NCBI GenBank assembly: GCA_963715865.1 | Contig: OY970280.1 | Location: forward strand, 960,001 to 1,024,000 | DNA from: Candidatus Bathyarchaeota archaeon | Lineage (GTDB): Archaea > Thermoproteota > Bathyarchaeia > Bathyarchaeales > Bathycorpusculaceae | Length of the DNA: 64,000 bases | Direction: 5' to 3' | In this document: positions 34,418-50,290 of the stretch, one piece after another | How the letters are laid out: each line of letters begins with the position of its first letter | Numbering within the stretch: position 1 is the first letter of the stretch | The notes under the pieces: model-generated | The model's input: only the letters and a program-made list of their open reading frames with translations | What the model was told of the DNA's origin: nothing | The model's database searches: none | Translations under genes and position numbers: made by a program

Positions 34418-35608
34418 TCATTCTTTGCGAATTACTTCGAATTTTTTTGGATCTCCCTTTGCGAAGCCTATTAGATGAATAATAAAATTTAGCGTCACTG
34501 TTATGTAGCTTGCGGCAGTACCTGCTAGGGCATGTTTCCAACCCATGCATACGCCAATGGTATAAGCTCTTATTGCAAGCCATACAGCTAAAGTGATATA
34601 TGTTAATGGCAAGAGCACAGCCGGTATATTAACGATGCCTAAATAATATAATGGCAACCCCACTGTTGCAATAGAGTACAGCCACAATCCTGAAAAGCCT
34701 ATCACACTCAACCTAAGCCTGTTAGGGAGGGGCAGCATTTTACGAGTTAAAATTCTAAGTTGCCCCCAAACCCACCTACGTCTTTGTTTTATGGCATCAC
34801 CAAAACTTAACGGCGGCATTATGAAAATCCGCTCTTCCGAATTAAAAACAGTATAACCCATTACTGATGCTTTGTGGAAGTAAAAAGCGTCTTCGCTGCT
34901 TATCAACTTGTGCTTAGTATTATGCGTAAAGCTACTTATGTCGTAGGAAACGTTCTTGTCGACTTGACTACTCATGCAGGTTCCTTCCCCATGAGCCCAG
35001 AGTGGTTTTCCAATGTTAGTAAAAAAATTGCAGAAAATCCCGCAAGCAACACAGCGTTCATAGTCGAGGATAGTGTTCCATACGCCTTTTACTATTGGAG
35101 TGATCGTACCTATGATAATGTCCGCGTTAACGGTCAAGCTTTCCTTTATGAACTCGAGACTAGGCACAGCATCGTCGTCTCCTTGAAGTAACAAATAGTT
35201 CGGCCCCAGCATGCCCTCGGCAACCATTTTTTGTCTTAGCCTACGAGCATATTCTAACGCACGACCCTTGTACAAATCTTCACATTCAAAATCTGGAGGA
35301 ACAACAACAACCTTATCGCAAACATATTCGGCCTTATGTTTGTCCCAATCTTCAATGATTACCCACGTTTCCAAGGGCACAGGCAGATCATAGTTTTTCA
35401 CCGTCTCAAATATCTTATTTACTGACTTTACGTTCCCTACAGTGGGTATCTGAAAGATTATCTTGTCAACTTTCTTCTCAGCCTGCCCTTTCTGTTTCAA
35501 TAGATTGATCCTTCGCGTCCTGTTGAATATTTTTCCAAACGCTAAGACAGCGAGGTAGAGAAAAGGTGAAAGCCAAATCGCCGAAATCACATAATCAAGT
35601 ATTATCAT
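34418..35608 (-). CDS. GT2 glycosyltransferase (Egghead-like/Glyco_trans_2_3)
   Basis: KGRALEY, GDDD, HGEG, SEDA, Q.RRW motifs; C-terminal TM helices. Confidence 0.8.
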   Translation of the reverse strand: MIILDYVISAIWLSPFLYLAVLAFGKIFNRTRRINLLKQKGQAEKKVDKIIFQIPTVGNVKSVNKIFETVKNYDLPVPLETWVIIEDWDKHKAEYVCDKVVVVPPDFECEDLYKGRALEYARRLRQKMVAEGMLGPNYLLLQGDDDAVPSLEFIKESLTVNADIIIGTITPIVKGVWNTILDYERCVACGIFCNFFTNIGKPLWAHGEGTCMSSQVDKNVSYDISSFTHNTKHKLISSEDAFYFHKASVMGYTVFNSEERIFIMPPLSFGDAIKQRRRWVWGQLRILTRKMLPLPNRLRLSVIGFSGLWLYSIATVGLPLYYLGIVNIPAVLLPLTYITLAVWLAIRAYTIGVCMGWKHALAGTAASYITVTLNFIIHLIGFAKGDPKKFEVIRKE

Positions 35609-36341
35609 GCTTGTTCTGAATCCTTAAATTATATGTTTTAACAGCCTCAAATAGCAATGGATTTAAGCCTTCGCCGCGAAAAGCAGAAATCAATTCATCC
35701 ATGCACATTGGAAGACATTTTCCTCCAAAGGGGTGACCGAACTTGGACGCGCCATACGTAGACATCCTACTATCAGCGCAGACTAAACGCGCAACCTCAC
35801 TAGTGGTTAGCCCTAGTTTCTTTGAAAGCTCATCGGCCTCGTTCCAAAAAGTTATCAACACACTGAGGTACGCGTTAGAAAGAAGCTTGGCAGCCTCGCT
35901 TTCGATAAGGCCAGTGACGTAGATAGGCTTCTTCAAAGGAGCATAAAGAGTAACCAGTTTCTGGGCATGCTCACTGCAACATTGACCTATTATTATCCGG
36001 TCTGGATTCATTACGTCTTCATATGCGCATTGTTCCCGTAAAAACTCAGGATTATTCAATAAATGAACGCCCCAACTATCCATCAAGCCTTTCGCAGTAC
36101 CTATAGACGTTGTACTCTTAATAACGTAAAGTCCTTCCACACCCTGCTCTACAAGGTTGTTGACAGCGTCAGGCACAACATTTCCGGGAGTACATACAAA
36201 AGTCAACTCCACCTGCTTCTCAGGACTCTTAACATCAGGAAAAACATAAGGATCAAAAACGAAAACTTCATGACCCAACTTTTTCAACAAAAACTCCTGT
36301 GCCTTACCAACGGTACCATACCCAATTACGTTTACCCTCAT
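35595..36341 (-). CDS. UDP-glucose/GDP-mannose dehydrogenase family protein lacking the C-terminal domain
   Basis: VIGYGTVG, IKST, NPEFLRE, KLLSNAYL, FGGKCLP; only 248 aa. Confidence 0.85.
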   Translation of the reverse strand: MRVNVIGYGTVGKAQEFLLKKLGHEVFVFDPYVFPDVKSPEKQVELTFVCTPGNVVPDAVNNLVEQGVEGLYVIKSTTSIGTAKGLMDSWGVHLLNNPEFLREQCAYEDVMNPDRIIIGQCCSEHAQKLVTLYAPLKKPIYVTGLIESEAAKLLSNAYLSVLITFWNEADELSKKLGLTTSEVARLVCADSRMSTYGASKFGHPFGGKCLPMCMDELISAFRGEGLNPLLFEAVKTYNLRIQNKHDNT

Positions 36342-36662: not shown

Positions 36663-36750
36663 TGGCGCCGGGAATGGGATTCGAACCCATGCGGACCAGA
36701 AGGTCCACGGGCTCTCAAGGCCCGCGCGTTAACCACTCTGCCATCCCGGC
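36663..36750 (-). tRNA. tRNA-Ser(TGA)
   Basis: Reverse strand GCCGGGA...CGGGC-CTTGAGA-GCCCG, long variable arm GGACC/GGTCC, GGTTCGAATCC, G-CCA. Confidence 0.96.
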
Positions 36751-36828: not shown

Positions 36829-37236
36829 ATGCATGGGCGTTTCATGGCAAAAACTCAAGAAGTGTCTATGAGTCAGGAGTTACTGGATTCAATTTTTGAG
36901 GGTGCAAAACGACTTTACCCGAGGGAGACGATTTTGCTTCTTAGGGGTAAAAAGGCTAAAGATGCCCTTCGTATAGTTGACCTTGTGATTCCGCCGTTGG
37001 CGACTTATGGGCATGGGTTTGCTAATTACCCGCTTCATTTGTTGCCCATGGATTTCTCTCTGGTAGGCACCGTGCATTCGCATCCGTCAGGTAACAAAAC
37101 GCCTTCGGATGTGGATTTTAATCATTTCTTTGGACGAATCCTCATGATTGTAGGCTACCCTTATGCGAGCCAGCAGGATGTTGCTGTATATAATTCGCAT
37201 GGGGAAAAATTACCATTGCTGGTAACTAAGGAGTAA
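36829..37236 (+). CDS. JAMM/MPN+ (Mov34/PAD-1) metalloprotease; its 3' end is the integration site
   Basis: PRE...HSHPSG...PS..D JAMM motif. Confidence 0.93.
   Translation: MHGRFMAKTQEVSMSQELLDSIFEGAKRLYPRETILLLRGKKAKDALRIVDLVIPPLATYGHGFANYPLHLLPMDFSLVGTVHSHPSGNKTPSDVDFNHFFGRILMIVGYPYASQQDVAVYNSHGEKLPLLVTKE
37225..37236 (+). repeat. attL core ACTAAGGAGTAA
   Basis: Exact 12-bp direct repeat of 48603-48614; encodes T-K-E-stop of the JAMM gene. Confidence 0.85.
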
Positions 37237-37305
37237 GCCTATTTTAAACGCGGTTATCTAAACCTTTTTAAGCGACGGAGCCATATCAGTCTATTGGCGA
37301 GATAA

Positions 37306-38367
37306 ATGTTAAATCAGCAAGTCGAAAACTGGTTAAGCGAATGCAGAACCGCAAACACAGAACGACAATATCGAATAAGAATAACAAATTTTTTAAATTG
37401 GTATAATGGCACGGTTGAACAGTTCTTAGCCTTAACCCCGGCAGAGAAACGTAACGCTATTTTGAGGTTTCAAAACGCGCCTATACACAAATCCAAAAAC
37501 ACCGCTGGCTCTCATGTTGTCGCTATTCTATCCTTCTTGCGATCCGTTGATATGCCACTGGATTTAAGGGGAAAAAAACTTCGCTATCAAATGGATATTT
37601 CAAGCCACACCTTCACAAACGGCGACTTGCAAAAAATGTTTGAGGTAGCCGACATAAAAGGCAAGGCACTTTTAGCTTTAGCGACTTCGCTGGGCTGGGA
37701 GGTCAGCGCGGTTCTCGGCCTCAAACGTGCCTATGTGGAATCTTTAATAGCGAAGGCAAAAAGCGAAAACCAACAGTTCTATTATTTCCTTTCACAGCGG
37801 GAAAAGACTGGAGCGCCACGGTTAGGCGTCTTAAACCCGTTAGCGATTGAATGGCTCTCTAAATGGTTTATCGAAAGTGACCAATACCCAAAACGCAACC
37901 GCATAAAGAACCCTAAAAGAGACTATGGAAACAGCGACATATTCGACGTTAATGAAGCATCCGCAAACAAGATAGTACAGCGATTAGCAAGGAGAGCGCA
38001 TATAGTCACCACGGGCAGAGTGCGTTTTCACAAGATAAGAGGCTGGGTTATGAGCAATCTTAGCCGCGCAGGATTCAACGAGTTTCAGGTTAAGTTTTGT
38101 GTTGGTAAGGCTATTCAAGCAAGCGACATGACTTATCTAAATACTTTACAAGAGCAAATAGCAGAGCGTTACCCAGCAGCCTATAACGACTATTTAAGTT
38201 TACAAAGCACCGTTCCAGCAAAAGCCTTAGTTAAAATGAGCAAAGAAACCGAGGCTATCAAAGCAGATAACGCTGAGTTAAAGGCCAAGATTGCGAAGAT
38301 TGAAAATGACATGAAAGAGTTGCTTCTTAAAGTGGTCGCACAGGAACCAAAGCTTCCTGACGAATAA
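37306..38367 (+). CDS. Tyrosine recombinase/integrase with atypical active site
   Basis: Core-binding N-domain; ALLALATSLGWEVS (box I), REKT, FHKIR, VGK, TYL; C-terminal coiled coil. Confidence 0.85.
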   Translation: MLNQQVENWLSECRTANTERQYRIRITNFLNWYNGTVEQFLALTPAEKRNAILRFQNAPIHKSKNTAGSHVVAILSFLRSVDMPLDLRGKKLRYQMDISSHTFTNGDLQKMFEVADIKGKALLALATSLGWEVSAVLGLKRAYVESLIAKAKSENQQFYYFLSQREKTGAPRLGVLNPLAIEWLSKWFIESDQYPKRNRIKNPKRDYGNSDIFDVNEASANKIVQRLARRAHIVTTGRVRFHKIRGWVMSNLSRAGFNEFQVKFCVGKAIQASDMTYLNTLQEQIAERYPAAYNDYLSLQSTVPAKALVKMSKETEAIKADNAELKAKIAKIENDMKELLLKVVAQEPKLPDE

Positions 38368-38403
38368 GAGAAAGATTAAAAAAAGAAAAAAGCTATTGTT
38401 GCA

Positions 38404-39156
38404 CTAACATTTTTTCTGTTGGTCACAGTGTTTGCATACTTCAGCGATGTCGAGGTCTCCCAACTTCAAAATGTGTGGCCCTCGGTCTATTTTTGGCTGT
38501 TGTATTTGGTAACAGGATGGATATTCTTCTTCTTTCTCAATTTGATCGAGTGCTGATTTTGCTTCGTTTAGTTGTAAACCCATTTTTCCAGCCAACCAGT
38601 CGAGATAGTCCGCGATCTCATTCATCGAATATCCTTTCTCTTTTAAGTAAATTCCAGTGAGCCTTAATCCTCTATTGAAGCCGTCTTCAAATGTGCATGG
38701 GGAAAAGAGAGCTACGCATTTTTTCGGAGATTCTCTATGAACCCAGAAAAGCTCAGGTATCCACTTTGGTTGCTCTTCTATCTTTTTGCCACTAAGTTCT
38801 TCTACAGTTAATATTTTTGTTAAGGAGTCTCTTTCTTCCTGCGACATGAGTTTTTCTGCCATCCGTTGTACTTGCCTTCTGGCATCAGAACGTTGAACCA
38901 CTAAACCAAACTTCAATGTTGGATGGTTCTCCTTCAACAAATGAAAATGGAATAACTTTTCTTCATATCGAGCCTTGAGTTCGACTTCCCAAAGTATCTT
39001 TTCTTCGTTTTTCTCCCAACAAACATCTACTATAACTTTAGCCCTCTTAGGAATCTCAAAAGAAGGGTTTCCAATAACATAACCCTTTTCAATTCCTTGC
39101 TTCTTAAGCAAATCTGCTAACGTAGTATGCAAAGACACTATTTTCTTTTCTGGCAT
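38404..39156 (-). CDS. PD-(D/E)xK nuclease-like domain fused to a Cys-containing helical domain
   Basis: IVDVCW...LWEVELK in the N-half; C-half has YPSC...C..C...C. Confidence 0.5.
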   Translation of the reverse strand: MPEKKIVSLHTTLADLLKKQGIEKGYVIGNPSFEIPKRAKVIVDVCWEKNEEKILWEVELKARYEEKLFHFHLLKENHPTLKFGLVVQRSDARRQVQRMAEKLMSQEERDSLTKILTVEELSGKKIEEQPKWIPELFWVHRESPKKCVALFSPCTFEDGFNRGLRLTGIYLKEKGYSMNEIADYLDWLAGKMGLQLNEAKSALDQIEKEEEYPSCYQIQQPKIDRGPHILKLGDLDIAEVCKHCDQQKKC

Positions 39157-39168
39157 CTATTCACCTCC

Positions 39169-39696
39169 CTAAGAGCGCGCTGGCATTTTTCGAATGTAGT
39201 ATCTTGCCAGATCCGTTGTTTTTTCAAGTGGTTCTATGCCATGGCACATCCTGTCTAACATTTTTCGAAGCCTGCTTATCCCCATTTTTGAGATTTTAAT
39301 GGGAAGGCAGTGGTAGTCATATTTTACTATTATGCCATCCACTGAGTCTATCAGTTCCCTATTCTTTTCAATGTTGTCTCGCTTTTGTTTGTAACTCGTA
39401 AACCATTCATGTATTTTTTGATTTGAGATTTTATCGATGCACACATTGCCGACCTTAGACGTCTTTCCGCTACTATCGGCAACTACATAAATATCTTTGA
39501 TTCTTTCGTGACCACATACTTGACAATTAAGAAATACTTCTGAACGATAATGGTCAACGAGTCGGTAACTTTCACCTTCATACTGGAATTCGCCAACGGC
39601 CTTTATGTATTCTGGAATACTTGCATCCAATTCGCTCAAAACTTCGTCAGTTTTTGATATAATGTTCAATCGTTTCTTCAAACCTGTTTTACTCAT
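39169..39696 (-). CDS. MGE-type zinc-finger protein
   Basis: CQVCGH.RIK.IYVV......KVGNVC pattern. Confidence 0.6.
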   Translation of the reverse strand: MSKTGLKKRLNIISKTDEVLSELDASIPEYIKAVGEFQYEGESYRLVDHYRSEVFLNCQVCGHERIKDIYVVADSSGKTSKVGNVCIDKISNQKIHEWFTSYKQKRDNIEKNRELIDSVDGIIVKYDYHCLPIKISKMGISRLRKMLDRMCHGIEPLEKTTDLARYYIRKMPARS

Positions 39697-41758
39697 TTTT
39701 CGAAGATTCCTCCTCTTCCATCAACTCAGCCAACGTCTTTTTGCGATTCTCTGCGTTAACATCATCAGACGAAATTAGTGCATCTACAGCCTTTTGCTCG
39801 TTAGACGCGTTTTCGGAGTTATTTTCTGGTTCTAACGCTGATTCTTCCTTAGAAACTATTACCACCAAGGGGTCGCTTTGCACCCTATCATTTTTATTAT
39901 TTTCTATTGAAGGATTAGATAGGGTTAGATTAGATTGTATAGATATATTATTTTCGCCAACTTTATTTTTACTATCAGGTGGTAATAGTTTAGAAGAGAC
40001 TTCACTGTTAAATTCAGAGTGCGCGTCCATAATCATTTTATCAAATTCTTCTTCAGTTATCGGTGTTTCAGTTTTATCAATGAAATTAATTTTTGATAGG
40101 GCGTAAGTGACACCCCTGGTGGTAATTGTTTCTTTCCATGTTTTGAAGTCCTTTATCAATTTCGCCTTTAAATCAGGGTTAATTGGCAAATTGGCTCTAA
40201 GTGCACTAATTTCAGTTTGAATCTCCGAATTTGACGCATTTTTTAACGGGTAATATGTTAATTCTCGACTGTCAGATTGTTCGTCTTCGCGTATGTCAAC
40301 CCAGCCTAAATCGCATAGTCTTTCTAAATATCGTCTTGCTGTTTTTCTTGACGGCGCTTTGGTTGTTGGTGTCTTTTCGCCTTCATAATTCATGGTAGGA
40401 TTGTTTTTGTCGTAGATGTGATTTACAATTGTCTTTAAGGTTGCGCCGTTAACGTGGTGTTCAACGTATTCATGGTAAAACGTTAATGTGCGCTTATCCG
40501 TGTTTGTCTGTGTGGTTTCGTAAATGAACTTGAAGTGTTTTTCTGCGTTTATGAAGTCTTGAACTGTAGCTACAAAGAATTTTTCGCCTTCTATGGTGAA
40601 AATAGGACGCTGGAATAGTGACAGGATCGGTTTTGCAGATAGGAGTTGTTGAAAATGTTCGAAGTCTCGCATGTCTCTTACTTCTAATCCGCCTATTAAC
40701 TCGTCGCAGTTGGGGAAGGGATTAATGAATTTTAGGTCATACTTTTTGATTGTATCGCGTATATTTCGAATCAAGGCTTTAAACAATATTTTGTCTTGGG
40801 ATGGTTTGGATTCCCAGGGGTAAGATCGTTTAGTCGCGATTGTTTTTTTGCCAGCTCGGATTTTAGCTTCATTGGTGTCTGGAGTGTCTGAAATTACTCT
40901 GGTTGCAAATTCCGAATAGTAATATTCGTCGATGCTACAGAAAATGAAGGCTGGTGCACCTTCAAGAACTACAACATGAACGTGGCCGTGCTCATCGACA
41001 AATTTATGTGTAATTCGGGGGCCGTCATGCGACATAGTGCTTTTTAACATCGCTAAGGTTTCTTTTGGTACAGTTTCTAAGAGAATGTAGATTTTGCCAG
41101 TGAATTTTATTAGGTCGAATGCTGCTTTAACTTTTTTGTCCCATTTAGGTTTTTCAATTTTGTAAACGTCTAATGCGTCTTGGTATTCTTCTTTCCCATC
41201 ATAATTTTTGGGTTTTGGCGCGTGCGGTGCATCATCCATGTTTAATGGTTCCTCTTCGCCGTTCTCATTGATTGTCATAAGTTCGCCCTGTTCATGAGTA
41301 ATAACTTTAGGGCTTTGCGAAGCGACCGTTATTATGTCTTCTTCCGGGAAATACGCGAAGACTGCTGTGGTATCATAGGTTTTTCCGCTTCCGCTTTCGG
41401 TGCTCTTGTGGCTAACTGAGAAGGGATCAACATAGGCGCTTAGCCCAGCCGCTTTATTGTCCTCGATAACCGCGTCATCAAACTTAACTGTTCTATGAAT
41501 ATCTGCATTAAATCGTTCTTCAATTTTTGGGTCATAAGCTAATTGTTCCAGCGAGCTTTTCAGTTCCAGTGGTACATGAAAGCTTTCAAGGCATTGCGTG
41601 TTGAGTAGGTTTTGCATGATTTCTTTTCCTTTAGCGCGGCATTCAGGGCAAAGAAGCTTGCCTGTTGGTGTTTCGCGCGTGACATCTAAACTTGATATGC
41701 CGCAGGCTTCGCATGTCTGCTCGATTTTTCGGAATCGTAAAAATTTAGGGAATTTCAT
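39689..41758 (-). CDS. Putative replication ATPase/helicase (Zn finger + AAA+ P-loop + wHTH)
   Basis: CEAC...CPEC; ESGSGKT Walker A; GAPAFIFCS...EFATR; RD finger; C-terminal TARRYLERLCDLGWV wing. Confidence 0.7.
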   Translation of the reverse strand: MKFPKFLRFRKIEQTCEACGISSLDVTRETPTGKLLCPECRAKGKEIMQNLLNTQCLESFHVPLELKSSLEQLAYDPKIEERFNADIHRTVKFDDAVIEDNKAAGLSAYVDPFSVSHKSTESGSGKTYDTTAVFAYFPEEDIITVASQSPKVITHEQGELMTINENGEEEPLNMDDAPHAPKPKNYDGKEEYQDALDVYKIEKPKWDKKVKAAFDLIKFTGKIYILLETVPKETLAMLKSTMSHDGPRITHKFVDEHGHVHVVVLEGAPAFIFCSIDEYYYSEFATRVISDTPDTNEAKIRAGKKTIATKRSYPWESKPSQDKILFKALIRNIRDTIKKYDLKFINPFPNCDELIGGLEVRDMRDFEHFQQLLSAKPILSLFQRPIFTIEGEKFFVATVQDFINAEKHFKFIYETTQTNTDKRTLTFYHEYVEHHVNGATLKTIVNHIYDKNNPTMNYEGEKTPTTKAPSRKTARRYLERLCDLGWVDIREDEQSDSRELTYYPLKNASNSEIQTEISALRANLPINPDLKAKLIKDFKTWKETITTRGVTYALSKINFIDKTETPITEEEFDKMIMDAHSEFNSEVSSKLLPPDSKNKVGENNISIQSNLTLSNPSIENNKNDRVQSDPLVVIVSKEESALEPENNSENASNEQKAVDALISSDDVNAENRKKTLAELMEEEESSKNE

Positions 41759-41868
41759 TGTGGAATCACTTCAAGCGCTTTTAACCGCGCTTCAATTTTG
41801 TCGAAAACCAGGTTCATTTCACGAATAAGGTCACGGATTGTAAATTCTTCACTTTTTGGGTTCATCAT
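41755..41868 (-). CDS. 37-aa coiled-coil peptide coupled to the ATPase gene
   Basis: Manual translation MMNPKSEEFTIRDLIREMNLVFDKIEARLKALEVIPQ; ATGA overlap. Confidence 0.4.
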   Translation of the reverse strand: MMNPKSEEFTIRDLIREMNLVFDKIEARLKALEVIPQ

Positions 41869-42169
41869 GCAAATCAACTTTTTTCATTTTTTCCCTCCAA
41901 GCTCCATCTTCCAGCTTCGTTTTTTGGTTTGCATGTTCGTCGTAACCGAAAGAGCGTTTGCATCGACCATATTTATAGTTTTCCAACTTTTTCTAATTTC
42001 TAATTTTATTTCTACCGTTTATTTTCCCCAATTTTAAAAAAACTAAAAGGGCAACCTTAGAGCCTTAGTCGGCAGTCTTACGAAATCCAAAATCCAGCGC
42101 TTTTTGGGCAAAGTCAATGAAATTCCAAAGATCGCAAGACCGCTATCGACGGGGTTTGAGTTGCATAGG

Positions 42170-42445
42170 CTTTTCTGGCGCTCCTGAGGTGAGTCAAGGT
42201 TATCCAGACGCTGAAACGCGGAAATTAGACGAATAGATGAAACCGCGCTCAGTGCTCGCGCGAACTCTGAGACGCTGGAACAGCGCATTCGGAGCCTAAG
42301 CGCGCTTAGAGCGCTACGTGTGGTAAATAAGCCTGAGTGTTCCGAAGAGGCCTACTTACCACACGCTGACTGGACGGTTGGAGAATTCATGGCAAGCCAA
42401 CCGGCGCACAAGTGGAGGAGAATCAAGGCTTGTGCTATGTCAGTT
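42170..42445 (-). ncRNA. Candidate structured non-coding RNA or ssDNA structure
   Basis: 17-bp stem (42317-42365) that pairs fully on the minus strand with 2 G-U pairs and has C(UUCG)G in its loop; adjacent three-stem junction 42366-42443; 14-bp palindrome 42296-42309. Confidence 0.55.
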
Positions 42446-42605
42446 TAATGTCTGTAATGGTTTGCGTGGAGGGCTTCTTTGAAAGGGCAGTGAATTGTGG
42501 TTCTTGACGGTGCATGGTAAAGCGCTGTATTGTCGCACGTTTCGGAAAAACTGATACCAGTTTGTTGTGGTCTTTCTGGCTCTTCCGCGTTGTCGGTCTG
42601 TCATG

Positions 42606-43304
42606 CTATCGCCTGCTCTTTGCGTGATAAATGGGGCCTAGCGTAGTGGTTCCGTCTGGTTGTGGTGTTGGAAGTCCGCCGCCTATTTCAAAGTCGTCAG
42701 AGTTCACGATTTTCAGGTTGCCACGCGAGTCTGTTGTCAGCAGTGCTTTGTCGAGCGGTACATCGGGACTCAATGCGCCGACGAGGTGCGTTCCTTTGGT
42801 TAAGTTAGGAACGACTCCGCTTAGGTGTGGCGCGATTTTCTCCAGTTCTGCCTCAATCGCGTTGAACGCGGCAAGCCTTTTATCGAACTTTGCCATTTTC
42901 ATCTCTAAACATTCTCTGAGTGCGCGCTGTTCACCTAATAATTGCGCAAGCCCCAAAGCTTCAACCGCGACAACGTTGGTTCTACCTCTTAGATGGAGGT
43001 CGAGTTTTTCCATCAGATCGCATTCTATACTTAACGCGGCAGTGACTAACTTTGAGGTTTCAATGTTCGCTTTTAGCTCTTCCGTAAATTGTGTCATAGT
43101 AGCTTTCCACCATTTCCCGACGGTAATTTCGCTATCTAAATTGGCGAATTGCTTTGCTGCACTGGGAGTATTGGATGTTATGACTTGATGAGTCGGGAAG
43201 TCTCGCTGAAGCATTTCATAGGCCTTTTCCAATATAGCGTAAGCGTTCCGCACGTCTGCGTCTGCGTCAAACATTTTCAAGTTATTAAAAGTTTCAAGTT
43301 TCAT
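42606..43304 (-). CDS. Hypothetical helical protein
   Basis: 232 aa with a GAGGTGA Shine-Dalgarno upstream. Confidence 0.8.
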   Translation of the reverse strand: MKLETFNNLKMFDADADVRNAYAILEKAYEMLQRDFPTHQVITSNTPSAAKQFANLDSEITVGKWWKATMTQFTEELKANIETSKLVTAALSIECDLMEKLDLHLRGRTNVVAVEALGLAQLLGEQRALRECLEMKMAKFDKRLAAFNAIEAELEKIAPHLSGVVPNLTKGTHLVGALSPDVPLDKALLTTDSRGNLKIVNSDDFEIGGGLPTPQPDGTTTLGPIYHAKSRR

Positions 43305-43319
43305 GTTTTTTCACCTCTA

Positions 43320-43706
43320 TTAAAGCCATATCGTATTTTTTTCTTGTACCGTTAAAACTTTTAGTCGCCAATCTGAGCATGGAGCGCCGTTATGAATAAA
43401 AGCTGGCGAACCAAGTTTGCAGCGCTCGCGCTTTGTATCATTCATGAGACAGGTAAATTCTACTTGATCGTAAGGCGCGTACATTTTAATGCGCCAGTCG
43501 TCTGGGTTAGCCATTACCGCGCTTTGCGACAATTCGACACGGTGAATGTGATCGCATGAACGGCAGCATCCGGGCATTTGGCACTTTTCGCATGGCGGTG
43601 AACAGGCGGGTTTAGGCAATTCTGCAACTTCGGATTCTGAAGGTTTCTTAGGTTGATTAGTTTGTTCTTGCATAATTTTTTTCTTCCTACGAAATGGATT
43701 TTTCAT
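43320..43706 (-). CDS. Cys-rich putative metal-binding protein
   Basis: CSPPCEKCQMPGCCRSCDH...C...C...CSDW. Confidence 0.7.
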   Translation of the reverse strand: MKNPFRRKKKIMQEQTNQPKKPSESEVAELPKPACSPPCEKCQMPGCCRSCDHIHRVELSQSAVMANPDDWRIKMYAPYDQVEFTCLMNDTKRERCKLGSPAFIHNGAPCSDWRLKVLTVQEKNTIWL

Positions 43707-43847
43707 TTACTTTCAACTCTCGGGTTTCGTTCATTCCAAGCTGTTCTGGCTGACCGAAACATTCCATTATGACTTTTTCAAACGCGCGGATGCGCTTGGT
43801 GTGGCTGGAGATATTGCATCTTGTTTTCTCTTTTTTAGAAACTTTGC

Positions 43848-44159
43848 TCATTTTTCGTTCTCCTCTGCTTCTGGATACTTTGGATATTTGTTTATTGTTT
43901 GGGCAATCCGCAAAACCACGACCACGACTCCGTGTTTAATAGCGCAATCAAAAAGTGACATTGCCAAAACGGAGTCAGAAAGACCTATGACGCTTTCAGT
44001 TAATGCGAAGTGTTTAATTGGAAAACCGAGCAGTTTTTTGGCGTCGCGGTAGAATGCCTGCCTTCCTTTCCCATTAGCCGCAAAATCGTAATCCACAATG
44101 TAATACTCTGTGTGTGCGCCTAATTCCTGAATTTTTCGCATAAAAATGACCTTACTCAT
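43848..44159 (-). CDS. Cas2/VapD-like small ferredoxin-fold protein
   Basis: YYIVDYDF....GRQAFYR..KKLLG......TESVI resembles the Cas2 pattern hhhhYDh...R...h.K.L..hG...Q.SVF. Confidence 0.5.
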   Translation of the reverse strand: MSKVIFMRKIQELGAHTEYYIVDYDFAANGKGRQAFYRDAKKLLGFPIKHFALTESVIGLSDSVLAMSLFDCAIKHGVVVVVLRIAQTINKYPKYPEAEENEK

Positions 44160-44184
44160 TTTCTTTCACATTTCACTTTTTCAT

Positions 44185-44406
44185 TTATGTGATTAAAGGA
44201 TTTTTTACGCTTGGAACAAGTTGTTTAAGATCGGAGAAAGCTATTTTGTAGAGAATCTGATGATGGCATTCGGGGCATTCAAAAGTCATTATAATTAAGG
44301 GGTCTTTGCCGACGTTTATGACTTCAGCTTTAACGGTTTTCAGCAGAACCTCAGATTTTTTATGTACACAGAAGAAATGTTGCTGATTCATCAATGCCTG
44401 CGCCAT
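44185..44406 (-). CDS. Small zinc-ribbon protein
   Basis: FFCVH...FECPECH. Confidence 0.65.
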   Translation of the reverse strand: MAQALMNQQHFFCVHKKSEVLLKTVKAEVINVGKDPLIIMTFECPECHHQILYKIAFSDLKQLVPSVKNPLIT

Positions 44407-44437
44407 TAACTTCGCCTCCGTTTTAATTCACTCATTC

Positions 44438-46165
44438 TTATTTGCCTCCGCGATAAAGTTTCTGTTGCGCAAACGCTTGCGATAAAGCCGTGACTAAAGG
44501 AGTTTCAAGACCGTTTATGATTGCTTGTGTTAAAGCATTTGTGAAATCCTGCAAACTTGCGTTAACTCCTAAACTTGCAATGCTAATTGTGGGGTTAACA
44601 GTGATTTGGAAAGTGTTTTCGTTTGTTACGGAGCCACCGCCACTTTCAGCCGTTGTTGCTAATGGAGTTACTGTGCCGACGTTGCTTAATGCTTCGCCAA
44701 GATTTTCGTTTAACGGCATAACAGCTTCTGGGCCAGATTCGCCAACCATTGCCAATGTTGGTTGAGTCACTACAGCGCCCCCTGCTAAGCCAATAGCGCT
44801 AAAAGCACCACCGATAGCTGATCCAACACCACCAAGCGCACTTCCAATGGTTCCGAAAAAGCCAGCGATTGGCTTCAACACTGTATTATAAACTGTTTCC
44901 AACGCGTCAAAAACAGGTTTAATCAATATATTGTATGCCGAACTGAGACCACTTGAAAGAGTGTTCCACGCAGCAAGCAATGTATCAACAATGAATGTTC
45001 CAAGCGGCGCTAAAACGTCGTTCCAAACCAATGTAAGCGCATCTTTAACGTCGTTTACGGCTGTTTGAATAAGGCCCCAAGCAACTTCGAAGGGTTTAAG
45101 GTACAGGTTAACCCAAACTTCTCCGATAAATTTGCCCAATGGAACAAGCACGTTATTCCATAAGAATGTTAATGCGCCTTCAATATCATCCAACGCAGTT
45201 TTTAATGCTCCTCCTAACACCGAACCAATCTCATTTATTGCATCGCGGAAAGGCGCGCAGTTCTGGTATGCTTCATAGATTCCAACTGCTAAGAGAGCGA
45301 TGCCAGTGATTACAAGAATGATGGGGTTTGCGGCGAGAAAATCCATTGCTCCCGAAATACCCTCAATCCCGCCAGACACGGCTGAACTGATGCCTGGAAA
45401 AGCTGTCATAAGTGTGGACATACCTGCAAATACGCTGGTAACAGCGGGGATGACGCTTACGCCAGTCATCATGAAGTCGTTGTTTAAGTTGCGTTGACCT
45501 TCAGTGACTCGTTCATTCGCAACCGTTAACGCGTCCTGCGCTGCACTAAGCTTACTCGCCGCTAAGGTTGCCTGCGGACTATCTGCTCCATACTTCGCGA
45601 CGGCTGTATTGTACGCATTTTGCGCCGACGTAACCGCATTAGTATCTCTCTCAACTGTAACATGAGCCTTGTCCAGGCTAACTTGCGCGTTTTCGATGTT
45701 GCTTACGCCCATGACAAGCATCGCGCCTGAAGATGCTAATTGCCCAACCGCTCCTACCTGTCGCAAAGTGCTGGCAGACGCCGCGTCAGTGGCTGAAACT
45801 GTTTGTCCCTGAGCGTTTACAGTCGTGGTTGCACTGGTTAAATTCGCGTTTGCAACATTTTCCGTCGCGGTTTGTGCTCCACTTAAGCTGCTGTTCACGT
45901 TCACCATTGAACTTTCGACATTTTGACTCACTGTGGCTGCAGTACTGCTAATCTGGTTTAGACTTTGATCAATATTTTCACTTGCTGTAGAAAATGCATT
46001 TTCGACGGAGGAAGCGGCATTTTCCATGCCACTTTCAAAAGTGGTCATTGGGGTACTGACATCTTCGATGCTGCCGCTTAATCCGCTTAATGCACTTTCC
46101 ATTCCACTAATCGCGCTGCTAACCTGATCTGATAATGTGAATTGGAATTGAACTGGAAAACTCAA
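44438..46165 (-). CDS. Phage tail tape-measure protein (575 aa)
   Basis: N-terminal ...TLSDQVS, Ala/Ser coiled coils, KYGADSPQA, amphipathic ~11-residue W/F repeats (LTFLWNNVLVPLG...LTLVWNDVLAPLG), C-terminal LAGGAVVTQPTLAMVGESGPEAVMPL; TTG start after GGAGG. Confidence 0.85.
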   Translation of the reverse strand: MSFPVQFQFTLSDQVSSAISGMESALSGLSGSIEDVSTPMTTFESGMENAASSVENAFSTASENIDQSLNQISSTAATVSQNVESSMVNVNSSLSGAQTATENVANANLTSATTTVNAQGQTVSATDAASASTLRQVGAVGQLASSGAMLVMGVSNIENAQVSLDKAHVTVERDTNAVTSAQNAYNTAVAKYGADSPQATLAASKLSAAQDALTVANERVTEGQRNLNNDFMMTGVSVIPAVTSVFAGMSTLMTAFPGISSAVSGGIEGISGAMDFLAANPIILVITGIALLAVGIYEAYQNCAPFRDAINEIGSVLGGALKTALDDIEGALTFLWNNVLVPLGKFIGEVWVNLYLKPFEVAWGLIQTAVNDVKDALTLVWNDVLAPLGTFIVDTLLAAWNTLSSGLSSAYNILIKPVFDALETVYNTVLKPIAGFFGTIGSALGGVGSAIGGAFSAIGLAGGAVVTQPTLAMVGESGPEAVMPLNENLGEALSNVGTVTPLATTAESGGGSVTNENTFQITVNPTISIASLGVNASLQDFTNALTQAIINGLETPLVTALSQAFAQQKLYRGGK

Positions 46166-46167
46166 TT

Positions 46168-46341
46168 TTAAGCCTCCGATGCTTTTTCAATAATTAGCCG
46201 TTCATTGTCGATGCGGACTAAAATTTTAGTGGGTAGTTTAGGAAACGGAAAACTTGAATCTGACATGACACAAGATGGAATGTACACGATCCCAGTTTTC
46301 GCGCATGGATGCGCTATTAATCTTCCGACGCTTTCACGCAT
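46168..46341 (-). CDS. 57-aa AbrB/SpoVT-like DNA-binding protein
   Basis: Manual translation MRESVGRLIAHPCAKTGIVYIPSCVMSDSSFPFPKLPTKILVRIDNERLIIEKASEA; its 3' end contains the tape-measure SD. Confidence 0.65.
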   Translation of the reverse strand: MRESVGRLIAHPCAKTGIVYIPSCVMSDSSFPFPKLPTKILVRIDNERLIIEKASEA

Positions 46342-46394
46342 TTTTCGGTCTCTCTTTTTTCTTGCCTATGTTCCAGAGACCGTTCCACGCTATG

Positions 46395-46635
46395 CGCGAA
46401 AGCGACCTATTTCCAAGTTTTCCTTAGAGAGCATTGGAGCTTTAAGTCACTGAGTGCTTGTCGGGTCTTACACGCGAGCTGGGGTGATACTCCTTCCGTC
46501 TCGCCGAAGCTCAGGATACAGTTCCTTCCACTACGCAGAGCCCTGTGACTCCAGTATGGACTATGGACGGTGCCGCACGTCCTCGGCTTACGGTTGCTCC
46601 GTTGCTCCCATTACTAAGGCGAAAGTGAAGTAAAG
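46395..46635. ncRNA. Second candidate structured non-coding region
   Basis: GC-richer than its flanks with no credible ORF; CGC-GAAA-GCG, GAGCT/AGCTC, GGACG/CGTCC and TTACT..GC-GAAA-GT..AGTAA stems. Confidence 0.4.
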
Positions 46636-46803
46636 CAAATTTGGCTTCATGCTTAGCTTCGCATTATTAGGCTTGATTTCAATGTTTGTTTGGCTATTCC
46701 GCCTTAGCAGATTTAGTATTGTTGCGCCTGCTTAAAAACTTTACGCATTTTTAGCATAAATAATATTAAAAGTAACTTTTTTATCAATAAATTGAATAGA
46801 ATA

Positions 46804-46860
46804 AAATACTAACATATAAGTTAGTATTTGTTTGAAATATTAACATATAAGTTAGTATTT
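46804..46860. promoter_or_regulatory. Tandem 26-bp dyads AAATA(C/T)TAAC-ATATAA-GTTAGTATTT (31-bp period) in an AT-rich tract; operator or origin
   Basis: Copies at 46804-46829 and 46835-46860. Confidence 0.8.
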
Positions 46861-47114
46861 GTGATATGTTAAGATTTGTCAGTTAACTAACCACGTTTTT
46901 AAAAGGCCGCGCTAATCGCAAGAATCACAAGATAAATTCTCGCCACAGATTGACTTATCCCATCTATTTCTTAATAGGATCGCTGAGAATCGCTTTAAAC
47001 ACTGGATTGACTGAGAAAAAGTGAGTTGTTACCCTACCCTAAACAATGCAGAAAAGCGACTCAGCAACATAGGCGTTTGCTAAAATACAAAAAAAAGAAG
47101 GGTTATTAGACTTT

Positions 47115-47243
47115 TCATTTGTCTTGTTGACGAAGCTCTTGTAGAAGAAGAGAAGAAACGTAATCCGTGATTGATAATCCATTACGTTTTGCTCTATCTT
47201 CTATCGCGGCAAACGCTTCTTTACTAACTCTTAATTTCTTCAT
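47115..47243 (-). CDS. 42-aa ribbon-helix-helix (CopG-like) protein
   Basis: Manual translation MKKLRVSKEAFAAIEDRAKRNGLSITDYVSSLLLQELRQQDK; SD GAGGTGA. Confidence 0.75.
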   Translation of the reverse strand: MKKLRVSKEAFAAIEDRAKRNGLSITDYVSSLLLQELRQQDK

Positions 47244-47381
47244 TCAATCACCTCTTTTTTTCCACGCTATTATCTGCGGGCAGTCACTTTCACACCCTGA
47301 GTAATAACATTCTGGTGTTTCGCTATCTTGATCAATTTCATGAGCAGTTTTATTTTTAGGTTTCTTGGTTGTTTTTTGCAT
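47244..47381 (-). CDS. 45-aa hypothetical protein
   Basis: Manual translation MQKTTKKPK...ECYYSGCESDCPQIIAWKKRGD; tightly coupled to its neighbours. Confidence 0.5.
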   Translation of the reverse strand: MQKTTKKPKNKTAHEIDQDSETPECYYSGCESDCPQIIAWKKRGD

Positions 47382-47566
47382 TAAGGCACTGCTCCGTTTT
47401 TGATTGGATGGGTTTTCATGTACTCGGTTAAGGCCTGCACTGTTTCCTCTGAAACTTTGTAGGTTGAGCCCGTTTTTCTATGAACGTAAAGTGTCCATTC
47501 GAGCCAGAACTTGTCGTCTATGTTTAAGCTTGTTCTTTTCTTTGTCATAGATTGCATATTTACCAC
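47381..47566 (-). CDS. Ribbon-helix-helix protein
   Basis: KRTSLNIDDKFW.EW...V.......VSE....AL.EYM. Confidence 0.7.
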   Translation of the reverse strand: MVNMQSMTKKRTSLNIDDKFWLEWTLYVHRKTGSTYKVSEETVQALTEYMKTHPIKNGAVP

Positions 47567-47647
47567 GTTACTTTACTTAATGCTTTCGTCCCTATTAAAC
47601 ATTACCACATTAACACATTAACACAATGTTTATTAATTACCACGTTA
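47560..47647. promoter_or_regulatory. Four TTA(C/A)CAC(G/A)TTA boxes between divergent operons
   Basis: At 47560, 47602, 47610 and 47637. Confidence 0.7.
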
Positions 47648-47859
47648 TTACGTTATTATTTGAGGAAAGCGAAATGTGGAATCAAACAAACTTGGATGGA
47701 AAAATTTTAGAACTCCCTACGGAGCTCCAATCAGTTTGCTGCGAAATTTGTTATAACGCAACCGAGGAAAAATGCGATTGTAAGTGCCACGGCGCCTTTC
47801 ACGGTCTCGGCAACTTGAACAAGAAAACAGAAACTGAGAAAATGCGCGAGGGATTTTAA
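47626..47859 (+). CDS. Cys/His-rich zinc-finger protein (probable start at MWNQ)
   Basis: C..C.NA....CDC.C.G.FHG motif typical of MGE proteins. Confidence 0.7.
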   Translation: MFINYHVITLLFEESEMWNQTNLDGKILELPTELQSVCCEICYNATEEKCDCKCHGAFHGLGNLNKKTETEKMREGF

Positions 47860-47860
47860 G

Positions 47861-48196
47861 ATGGAAGTCGTAATGAACCGCACTAAGGAACATTGGCTTT
47901 TCACTTGGACGCCTACTGGCACCGTTAAAACTTACTTTGTCAGCGAAGGACACATTAACGTGCAATGCCTACCCGGCGAGAAAGAGTTAACCAACCAACT
48001 GTTCAACGCATTGTACGCTGGAGTGCCCGTTCACGTTCACGGCGCCTATGACAAGGAAACTCACATCCTCACGATTAAGCCTGCCGAACGCGATGAAAAT
48101 GCGCCAGTCCCCACGCAAACGCCGCAACAGCGCGACCGCGCCACAGACGACTATTTCAAGTGGCAAGAAGAACACCTCAAAAACCTATGCGTGTAA
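47861..48196 (+). CDS. Hypothetical protein
   Basis: 111 aa, operon-like spacing. Confidence 0.7.
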   Translation: MEVVMNRTKEHWLFTWTPTGTVKTYFVSEGHINVQCLPGEKELTNQLFNALYAGVPVHVHGAYDKETHILTIKPAERDENAPVPTQTPQQRDRATDDYFKWQEEHLKNLCV

Positions 48197-48232
48197 TCCG
48201 CAATATTCAAGAAGTTAGGAGTCGTATAGGAG

Positions 48233-48484
48233 GTGAAAAGTGTGAGTGAAAAATTTGAGTATGAACAAGTAACTATCAAAGTGCCTAAGCAAATAATGGC
48301 TTTTCTGCGCTTCCAAGCTGGACAGCACGATGTCCAGGTAACGGAAGAAATAGAAGGCTGTGTGCTTGACGATGTGCGAGGTCTAATGGAAGGTATGGAG
48401 GGAGAAGAATTGATTGGTTTTCTCGGGATGGACACTATTTTCTATGAGCTATTAGACGACCAAAACTATAAGCCAAAAGGCTAA
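48233..48484 (+). CDS. RHH-like small protein
   Basis: VTIKVPKQIMAFL N-terminus; SD GGAGGTGA. Confidence 0.65.
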   Translation: MKSVSEKFEYEQVTIKVPKQIMAFLRFQAGQHDVQVTEEIEGCVLDDVRGLMEGMEGEELIGFLGMDTIFYELLDDQNYKPKG

Positions 48485-48602
48485 AAGCAACAGATTAAAC
48501 CTTCAATATCTCTTTTTTTTATTTTTCAAATATGCCTACCGGGAGGGGTCTTTTTTCCAGACAGACAAACTAAAAATCAATAACCGTCTTTTATTTAAGT
48601 TT

Positions 48603-48614
48603 ACTAAGGAGTAA
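48603..48614 (+). repeat. attR core ACTAAGGAGTAA
   Basis: Exact repeat of 37225-37236, within the dyad TTACT-AAGG-AGTAA. Confidence 0.85.
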
Positions 48615-48624
48615 CCGCTCTTCA

Positions 48625-48969
48625 CTAAGCGCATAGGGCTTTGTAGGCTTCGATAAATTCCATGGCAAATTTGTCAGCGTATTTCTCTGTGCCTCTATGC
48701 ATTTTATCCACCGCTTTGCTGCGCAGGTGATGATAAAACTCGTGTAGAATAACGAAGGGGTTCACCATCACGTCACTATTTAGCACTGAAATGGTTTCAT
48801 TTTTAGATGTATAACAACCGAACGCTTTCATCTTGTGCCCTTTTGGTAAACCAACTTTCAGTTTGGGAACATTCACTTTGTAATTTTTCGCCAGTAAAGT
48901 GAGCGCTTCTTCCGGTTTTCCATTGAGAATAAACCAGACCACTAGTGGTTTGAAGTTGTCCTGCGTCAT
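48625..48969 (-). CDS. Small HExxH zincin-like protein
   Basis: FVILHEFYHHL. Confidence 0.75.
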   Translation of the reverse strand: MTQDNFKPLVVWFILNGKPEEALTLLAKNYKVNVPKLKVGLPKGHKMKAFGCYTSKNETISVLNSDVMVNPFVILHEFYHHLRSKAVDKMHRGTEKYADKFAMEFIEAYKALCA

Positions 48970-49039: not shown

Positions 49040-50290
49040 TTACTCGCCGTAAGTGCCTCTTCTAATCTTCTCAGCCAACAAATGGATGAACTCAATCGGC
49101 CAAACATCATCACAAACATCGTCCGTCAATATGTTGCGTTGATGATACATGGAAATTAAATCATTTTTTAGTAGAAGTATTAGAAGGAATTTGTGGCCAT
49201 AAGTTCTTTTGAACAGCGCATATTTGCGAGCTTGCCTTTTAGTCATTTCAAAGTGGGGTTCAAGGATTATTTTTCTTCCTTGAAGTGTCTTTTCTAATAT
49301 AAAATCTGGGGTGTAAATTTCGTTGTTTGGCAAAGGGAAGCTAATCGTTTCATAACCATATGGAATGTGCATCCTCAAAAGGGTGAGGGCGGTTTTTTTC
49401 TCCCATCCGCTCTTGTAGCGGCTCATTTTTTGGTAATAAGCTTGGGACTGCCCAGTTATTTTTTGCATGCGATCAAGAAAATCAAGTGCTGTTTTCAACG
49501 TGTAGCGGTTTAAGGTTTTTTGTTTAAGCCATCTGCCCAAGAGGAAAAAGGGAGAATCTACCTTCGCAGGGTCTTGTGGGAAAAGTCGTTTTGCAAAGTC
49601 AGTTATTTTTTGCCGTGCATCTGCTGCGGTGCGTTCGTCTCTCCACAGCGATGGCGAAGCTGAGTTTATTACACCCAAGCTTGCAGCAACATTAGCGTTT
49701 TCCTTGGTCAATGGAACGTAGAGGTCTTCTGGCAAAAGATGGTCGTAGATTTGCAGGTCAGGTAGAGGTCTCACCATCCACCGCATATAAATCCACGCCT
49801 TGTCTATGTGCGGTCCGCTAAGCGCTTTGATGTTTTGTGCAATGTCCTCGATGAAATCCTTAGGCTTACTAAATCTTTGGGCGTACTTTAGCAGGTTTTT
49901 TTCTTCATTAGTCTTCACAAATAAGTTAACAGACGCCAAGATTTCGGATGCCGCTTTTTTGTTTGGACCTAAATCGTAATAAAAATCGGATTTTACGATT
50001 TCTTCTTCGAAAATATGCGCTTTTTTTATTTCGAAAAGGCTGTTGCCAAAGGCTTCATGTAGATATGCTAGTAGCATTCGTGCGTTTTCAGGGTAACCTA
50101 CAACTGTATCATCAAGTATAGATGCAGCCAGTAGAAAGTAGTGCGCTATAGTTTTCCGCTCTTCATACTTTTCCGAGTACGGGTTAAAGAGCAACCGTGG
50201 ACTCATACGTCGGTCCCATTGGATGTCAACAACGTTGGAATTCTTGTTAATGAAGTCAACAAGTAAAGTTAGCACTTCATCGGTTGCCAT
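49040..50290 (-). CDS. DUF2400 (TIGR02757)-like HhH domain fused to a T7 endonuclease I-like PD-(D/E)xK domain
   Basis: KAWIYMRWMVRP.PDL...VPL...LG...FP.DPAKVD.P.F.LG, then YKSGWEK...YE.......YTPDF.....ILEPH. Confidence 0.7.
   Translation of the reverse strand: MATDEVLTLLVDFINKNSNVVDIQWDRRMSPRLLFNPYSEKYEERKTIAHYFLLAASILDDTVVGYPENARMLLAYLHEAFGNSLFEIKKAHIFEEEIVKSDFYYDLGPNKKAASEILASVNLFVKTNEEKNLLKYAQRFSKPKDFIEDIAQNIKALSGPHIDKAWIYMRWMVRPLPDLQIYDHLLPEDLYVPLTKENANVAASLGVINSASPSLWRDERTAADARQKITDFAKRLFPQDPAKVDSPFFLLGRWLKQKTLNRYTLKTALDFLDRMQKITGQSQAYYQKMSRYKSGWEKKTALTLLRMHIPYGYETISFPLPNNEIYTPDFILEKTLQGRKIILEPHFEMTKRQARKYALFKRTYGHKFLLILLLKNDLISMYHQRNILTDDVCDDVWPIEFIHLLAEKIRRGTYGE

Follow-up and report, generated by a model that had tools for sequence, protein, structure and literature searches.

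The DNA analysed here is a window of 64,000 nucleotides (assembly GCA_963715865.1, contig OY970280.1, positions 960,001 to 1,024,000) from the genome of a Bathyarchaeia archaeon from peat soil. The window contains an integrative element of 11,378 bp (window positions 37237-48614) which is located at the end of a gene for a JAMM-type protease. We conclude that this is an integrative mobile element which was inserted by conservative site-specific recombination through its own tyrosine recombinase (37306-38367), and we assign to this reading a probability of roughly 85%.

Borders of the element and the target gene

The following features define the two ends of the element and its surroundings (window coordinates).

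36663-36750, minus strand: tRNA-Ser(TGA), nearby, intact and not used as target (ARAGORN; Rfam tRNA, 57.5 bits)
36829-37236, plus strand: target gene, JAMM/MPN+ metalloprotease of 135 aa with the motif HSHPSGNKTPSDVD (Prok-JAB, 2.8e-9; translation)
37225-37236, plus strand: attL core, 12-bp identity block (exact repeat, pair unique in the genome, empty-site joint 37224->48603)
48603-48614, plus strand: attR core, 12-bp identity block (same evidence)
48625-48969, minus strand: convergent HExxH gene, 114 aa, with the motif HEFYH, right neighbour of attB (translation; convergent with and adjoining the JAMM gene in 8 relatives)

The 12-bp sequence ACTAAGGAGTAA occurs in two exact copies, at 37225-37236 and 48603-48614, as a first-pass annotation of this DNA had already stated. 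These are the only two copies in the whole single-contig genome of 2,354,843 bp, where chance alone would give about 0.3. Direct repeats at both ends of the inserted DNA and a single copy at the empty site of relatives are the arrangement expected of a site-specific integrative element. The left copy contains the C-terminal codons T-K-E and the TAA stop codon of the JAMM gene. The reading frame of this gene is not altered by the insertion, and its protein is unchanged because the element supplies an identical copy of the last three codons and of the stop codon. The JAMM protein carries the HxH...S..D motif, and orthologues are found in 32 of 41 relatives.

The annotation had placed the integration into the stop codon itself. 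The location at the end of the JAMM gene holds, but the point of exchange can be resolved only to the 12-bp identity block, that is to three codons and the stop codon. Also as had been predicted, excision would leave the stop codons of the JAMM gene and of the HExxH gene separated by 10 bp (48615-48624). The tRNA-Ser(TGA) gene lies on the left, 475 bp from the core, and an Rfam scan found no family other than this one. It had been stressed that the integrase skips this tRNA gene in favour of a protein gene; the tRNA gene is indeed close by, but the contrast is weaker than it was made to appear since the ends of protein genes are documented targets (PMC6563490, PMC8371274).

Empty sites in relatives and metagenomes

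The first-pass annotation had named the absence of a JAMM-HExxH junction in relatives lacking the element as the result that would refute it; the predicted junction was found. In a sister species, the closest relative (G018, JAMM protein 88% identical), the convergent genes for JAMM and HExxH enclose the sequence GGTAACTAAGGAGTAAC, followed by the right flank, which corresponds to the predicted attB. The two genes are convergent neighbours at 8 loci in related genomes of the same genus. Contigs from four peat or wetland metagenome runs, which stem from four separate studies, pass from position 37224 straight to 48603. The skip measures exactly 11,378 bp, with 12 letters being ambiguous and fitting either side, and the flanks of these contigs are 99-100% identical to the window. 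The depth at the joint is 175.6, 139, 25.9 and 84.9 in the four runs, and the interior of the element is essentially uncovered. A second strain variant has ACTGAGGAGTAA at the empty site. Strains nearly identical to the one sequenced here thus have the empty site, and the insertion is therefore a recent strain-level polymorphism in the natural population.

The integrase

37306-38367, plus strand: integrase, a divergent tyrosine recombinase of 353 aa, intact, with a SAM-like N-terminal domain, a catalytic domain and a long C-terminal helix (AlphaFold2, Foldseek, Pfam matches of homologues)

The integrase gene begins about 69-70 bp past the attL core and is not split. Its AlphaFold2 (AF2) model has a pLDDT (predicted local distance difference test) of 89 and shows a two-domain fold with a core-binding SAM-like domain and a catalytic domain. 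A Foldseek search with this model gave 36 PDB matches at E<=0.001, and all those listed are tyrosine recombinases, among them XerH (best match, E 1.6e-8), XerA, the integron integrase IntI, Cre and lambda Int. More than 200 homologues were found, mostly from Bathyarchaeota and from metagenomes. PF00589 is matched by 30 of 37 homologues (E<=0.01) and the SAM-like N-terminal domain by 16 of these 37. In the 37 homologues and in 11 paralogues from the genus, H242-x-x-R245 and Y277 are invariant, and K268 is conserved.

The model opens directly with the SAM-like helices, and a lambda-type N-terminal arm-binding domain is thus lacking from it; chains of the Xer/Cre type align over most of the length of the protein. 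We infer from the predicted structure that the integrase is a divergent two-domain enzyme of the Xer/Cre type without an arm-binding domain. An SSV-type integrase carries its att site inside the gene and is split upon integration. Here the core stops 69 bp short of an uninterrupted open reading frame (ORF); the enzyme is therefore not a self-splitting integrase of the SSV type.

Several observations weigh against the reading as a mobile element inserted by this enzyme. The integrase itself scores only 13.4 bits against PF00589, below the gathering cut-off of 27.1, and a profile of its family matched no solved structure by sequence. Moreover, the first catalytic arginine (box I) cannot be recognised at its usual place. 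Finally, a scan of viral, genome and metagenome contigs for the attL and attP patterns returned only attL copies of the type seen in SPRUCE_136, a related metagenome-assembled genome described below, and no attP junction or circular form. The four metagenome runs compared at the empty site contain no element DNA and are hence silent on excision.

As regards the profile match, a paralogue of the integrase in the same genome, belonging to an element in msrB (see below), passes PF00589 with 29.4 bits. Alignment with hhalign against one canonical recombinase alone gave no link. In a profile alignment (97.8% probability) the canonical GLR falls on G130-W131-E132, and the position of the arginine varies between E, A, S and D. 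R141 is nearly invariant, opens the next helix and precedes K167 by 26 aa, which is the canonical spacing. Judging from these sequence positions R141 may be a plausible equivalent of the first arginine.

Past the tyrosine helix, residues 305-349 (about 45 aa) form one single helix at the end of the protein; its sequence is coiled-coil-like, and it may aid multimerisation. Searching for the archaeal XerA with the model NF040815 (E<=1e-30) we obtained no match in this genome and in 24 further genomes of the genus, and a match in 3 of 16 genomes that belong to other genera of the order.

Other elements with the same site or the same integrase type

The same JAMM end is used by other elements. The Bathyarchaeia metagenome-assembled genome SPRUCE_136, also from peat, has a 10.6-kb element (L015) between the same 12-mers. 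Its integrase is 84% identical and its replication protein about 34% identical to that of the window element; the remainder is unrelated. The only virion gene detected in this sister element is a large terminase (PF03237, 2.5e-7; phrog_2, 4e-34). On a metagenome contig (L051) an integrase with 81% identity is situated beside the JAMM end, with the core being the G variant ACTGAGGAGTAA that matches the strain variant seen at the empty site. This contig carries a tail-completion/neck gene (phrog_5, 1.4e-9), has nothing besides integrase and att site in common with the window element and is likely a head-tail provirus. With three elements at one site, a single integrase/att module is therefore borne by at least three different elements.

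A more distant sibling is found in the same genome, about 438 kb past the end of the window (L037, 451-8987). This element of about 8.5 kb encodes an integrase with 32-34% identity and is bounded by the 16-bp repeat AATATCAATGGATTTT in the 3′ end of msrB. Its insertion swaps the last six codons of msrB for two, thereby changing the C-terminus from ...MDFIPDKKE to ...MDFLK. Three relatives have the empty site. The att site of this element bears no sequence relationship to that at JAMM.

For nine other integrase homologues a search for short att repeats yielded only repeats of 10-12 bp at chance level, and a scan of the upstream ORFs was ambiguous; targets are therefore known for the JAMM and msrB lineages only. 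Within the DNA retrieved around each of 11 loci with an integrase homologue, no tRNA gene was found.

Three further loci (L048, L049, L050) have integrases with 71-76% identity which adjoin primase-helicase genes of the D5_N/DUF5906 type. Their left flank differs and contains a PadR-like frame, and the P′-side motif is retained as TTTTAAA-N2-C[GA]GATAT. This pattern in the sequences suggests that modules may have been exchanged and the target switched.

Architecture of attP and attB

The two halves of attP were read from the sequence.

48580-48602, no strand assigned: P side, with the outer arm ATAACCG (48580-48586), a 14-bp spacer and TT
37237-37257, no strand assigned: P′ side, with a 14-bp spacer and the outer arm CGGTTAT (37251-37257)

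Joining the ends gives ATAACCG-N14-TTACT-AAGG-AGTAA-N14-CGGTTAT, exactly the sequence that the first-pass annotation had put forward as a core dyad with 7-bp inverted arms. Core and arms are present, but the symmetry is wider than was described and takes the form of an imperfect palindrome some 56-60 bp long. Counted outwards from AA|GG, 19 of 26 positions pair; the outer arms, 21-27 bp away from this centre, are among them. This pairing value was reached by 8 of 3,000 shuffles, and a symmetric perfect run of at least 7 bp occurred in 0.2% of shuffled flanks. The proposed attB dyad GGTAACT-AAGG-AGTAACC was likewise borne out, with its arms pairing at 6 of 7 positions.

The attP of the sister element pairs at 25 of 30 positions and has perfect inner arms of 10 bp (TAGGCTTACT / AGTAAGCCTA). 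The blastn alignment between the two elements starts at 48579, i.e., at the left outer arm. The rebuilt attP of the msrB element, whose sequence is unrelated, is also a long imperfect palindrome; it is centred in the 16-bp core, pairs at 24 of 32 positions (reached by none of 3,000 shuffles) and contains four copies of a motif of about 12 bp, AATTCGGAATAT, in two back-to-back pairs.

The repeats might alternatively be target-site duplications made by a transposase or casposase rather than att sites. Casposons also insert at the 3′ ends of protein genes and produce duplications of 14-15 bp (PMC6563490). Against this, no Cas1 or transposase match was obtained among the scanned ORFs, a tyrosine recombinase gene is located 70 bp from attL, and the dyad is centred on the core. 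Imperfect homology moreover extends past the 12 bp (T.ACT...TAA.C), as would be the case for related half-sites, and the inverted arms are separated from the repeats by 14 bp on the inner side instead of abutting them as the terminal inverted repeats of a casposon or transposon do. We regard a target-site duplication as extremely improbable.

Under site-specific recombination two integrase protomers would bind to the inverted half-sites of each partner, that is to TTACT/AGTAA in attP (10 bp in the sister element) and to GGTAACT/AGTAACC in attB. Strands would be exchanged over an overlap of 6-8 bp which is centred on the asymmetric AAGG and falls within the identity block. The outer arms ATAACCG and CGGTTAT probably bind additional integrase or an accessory protein, and such binding would set attP apart from the short attB. 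Control of the adjoining integrase promoter may be a further function of the right arm.

The assignment of the outer arms has an alternative, namely that they are not recombination sites at all, the right arm being part of the integrase promoter region and the match on the left having arisen by chance. The right arm is located 8 bp upstream of the TATA-like sequence CTTTTTAAG, which in turn precedes the integrase start by about 37 bp. Arm and box are conserved jointly: TTTAAAC-N-CGGWTAT is kept in the attL regions of integrases with 71-84% identity, including those with a different left flank and other cores. A role of the right arm in the promoter or in autoregulation must therefore be taken seriously, and its conservation could reflect this. 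It also fits that the predicted model of the integrase has no arm-binding domain. Comparison with the sister element does not strengthen the case for the arms: its left outer arm has a single mismatch, and across the attP stretch the two elements are overall about 85% similar and thus too alike to single out the arms. What argues for the arms as parts of attP is the rarity of a symmetric perfect 7-mer in the shuffles, the same extended symmetry in the unrelated attP of the msrB element and the start of the sister-element similarity at the left arm. On balance we think it somewhat unlikely that promoter and chance match account for the arms.

Two other ideas were rejected. A folded single-strand attP, as in integrons or CTX, was discarded because the identity block sits at the centre of the palindrome and would end up in the loop instead of the stem. 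The outer arm ATAACCG resembles the attB half-site GTAACCG, but this resemblance fails in the sister element and was not relied on.

Gene content and nature of the element

The genes between the integrase and attR are the following.

38404-39696, minus strand: two ORFs of 250 and 175 aa, function unassigned (no Pfam or NCBIfam match; the 175-aa ORF weakly matches phrog_2319)
39689-41758, minus strand: putative replication protein of 689 aa (P-loop ATPase, Walker A GSGKT, C-terminal winged helix, MCM-like predicted fold)
42043-44406, minus strand: seven small ORFs of 54-232 aa (no family match at 0.01 except for CoiA_N in a 73-aa ORF, weak and below the Pfam cut-off)
44438-46165, minus strand: tape-measure-like protein of 575 aa, rich in Ala/Ser/Gly, with membrane segments and repeats (PHROG tape-measure families, 2e-14 to 3e-13)
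46342-47114, no strand assigned: stretch without long ORF (frames <=82 aa), candidate control or origin region (ORF listing; no Rfam family)
47115-47566, minus strand: small ORFs, candidate regulators (ORFs of 42 and 61 aa, ribbon-helix-helix-like as judged by eye)
47626-48484, plus strand: three small ORFs (77, 111 and 83 aa) beside attR (ORF listing)

The 689-aa protein is the putative replication protein of the element. Homologues, for which atlas clusters were also used, carry PF27228, and one of them is fused to Prim-Pol. The AF2 model has a pLDDT of 76.5, and the top 50 Foldseek matches are all MCM proteins, with TM-scores of only about 0.3. One contig bears both an integrase with 54% identity and a homologue of the replication protein with 50% identity. 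Contigs of 12-15 kb which bear a homologue of the replication protein showed no terminal overlap. The 575-aa tape-measure-like protein has no paralogue encoded in this genome. It shares 37% identity over 150 aa with the product of a 779-aa gene in a head-tail provirus (locus L016); the latter gene is situated in tape-measure position beside HK97-gp10_like, and the integrase of this provirus is 71% identical to that of the window. The combination of an MCM-like ATPase, a tape-measure-like gene, small regulators and unassigned genes points to a small plasmid-like or virus-derived element and not to a complete virus.

The element could be a satellite dependent on an archaeal tailed virus; it would consist essentially of integrase and replicase and would have kept the tape measure in order to exploit the particles of a helper. 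Family scans of the ORFs, many of which are without assignment, gave no capsid, portal or terminase match in the 11.4 kb. The relationship of the tape-measure-like gene to that of a head-tail provirus, the terminase as the sole virion gene in the sister element and the presence of the same integrase type and att site in the likely head-tail provirus on contig L051 are also in line with such a lifestyle. Since most ORFs are unassigned, divergent structural genes may have been missed. Furthermore we identified no helper virus, the HK97 capsid (PF05065) was not found in this genome, and no role in satellites is established for a tape measure or terminase on its own. We therefore judge the satellite reading to be unlikely.

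We find it similarly doubtful that the element arose by deletion from a head-tail provirus, as a remnant which has kept its att sites and integrase and no longer functions. In favour of this, head-tail proviruses contain relatives of both integrase and tape-measure gene, and the genome has other, broken terminase genes. However, all listed ORFs of the element are intact and tightly packed, both repeats are perfect, and the replication gene is common to the sister element of similar size and to other small contigs. In addition the polymorphism among near-identical strains suggests a recent arrival.

Taken further, the window element, its sister and the msrB sibling might represent an undescribed family of small Bathyarchaeia elements, each with a single virion gene, which are satellites of tailed viruses and share the integrase type, and once the att site, with a provirus of the likely helper type; their integrases would form an uncharacterised branch of tyrosine recombinases working with palindromic attP sites some 56-60 bp in length and with the ends of protein genes. 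This broad proposal we consider improbable. The pattern of the cargo may equally well be that of a satellite, of a plasmid-like element with captured genes or of a remnant.

Outside the element, a frame resembling a terminase large subunit with an internal TAA is present at 16294-17226 (minus strand) of the window and is 29% identical to the terminase of the sister element. Elsewhere in the genome there are further terminase copies, namely an intact one (53% identical) and one containing a TAG, besides some fragments. To the right, at 49040-50290 (minus strand), a 416-aa protein matches DUF2400 (1.1e-8) and has a weakly phage endonuclease I-like C-terminus. To the left a UDP-glucose dehydrogenase-like ORF (35595-36341) is short, with 248 aa and a partial N-terminal domain; close-strain metagenome contigs differ at this place, where they skip 461 bp (GTGCA lying in between) and 114 bp.

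Comparison with known systems

Among 68 thaumarchaeal elements collected by Krupovic et al., 39 target tRNA genes, 15 intergenic regions and 14 the 3′-distal part of protein genes, with short att sites (PMC6563490). A 2021 review of archaeal tyrosine recombinases lists further protein-gene targets, none of them tested for recombination (PMC8371274). The choice of a protein-gene 3′ end is therefore not exceptional. With the thaumarchaeal integrated elements (PMC6563490) the window element shares the tyrosine recombinase, the short att repeats, the empty sites in relatives and the supply of the gene end by the element. It differs from them in its host among the Bathyarchaeia, in the uncharacterised integrase family, in the exact restoration of the coding sequence and in the readable dyads of attP and attB.

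Like the non-suicidal integrases of the pNOB8 type, which are opposed to the SSV type (PMC8371274), the integrase is intact beside attL with attP outside the gene. The pNOB8-type enzymes have the catalytic signature R...YxxR...Y, whereas here we find HxxR...Y, a lysine at the place of His/Trp III and an unclear first arginine; their core measures 40-50 bp, in contrast to the 12 bp and the non-tRNA target observed here.

XerA, XerH, Cre and IntI are the best fold matches, and inverted half-sites around a short asymmetric centre are also found in dif and loxP. The window system is set apart by the extra symmetric arms of attP, by an attB that differs from attP and by the additional C-terminal helix of about 45 aa. 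To our knowledge, attI of IntI is the only site within this group with extra integrase sites beside the core.

A complex attP facing a short attB and a common core of about 12-15 bp are reminiscent of the lambda type (PMC8371274). The lambda attP, however, spans about 240 bp, is asymmetric and is served by an arm-binding N-terminal domain, whereas the attP described here has about 56 bp, is symmetric and belongs to an integrase whose model lacks such a domain. The bacterial phage satellites P4 and PICIs (phage-inducible chromosomal islands) resemble the window element in being small and integrative, in having their own integrase and replication gene and in lacking most virion genes. Unlike these, the window element has an archaeal host and retains the tape measure as its single gene of this kind.

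The element thus offers an unusually clean case of archaeal integration, with borders at base level, natural empty sites and three different elements at one site. With att sites of 18-60 bp, a first biochemical test in the Bathyarchaeia would have well-defined substrates; for this group we know of no genetic tools and no characterised integrase. That small capsid-less elements and a likely tailed provirus have one integrase/att module in common offers a starting point in the search for archaeal virus satellites. Whether att sites in protein genes possess the dyad symmetry which such enzymes require was posed as a question in the review (PMC8371274); here symmetry is present in attB as well as in attP and recurs at two unrelated sites of one integrase family. 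To sum up, this kind of insertion is known in archaea, and what is added is a base-precise and multiply confirmed case from the Bathyarchaeia with readable attP and attB and an uncharacterised integrase family.

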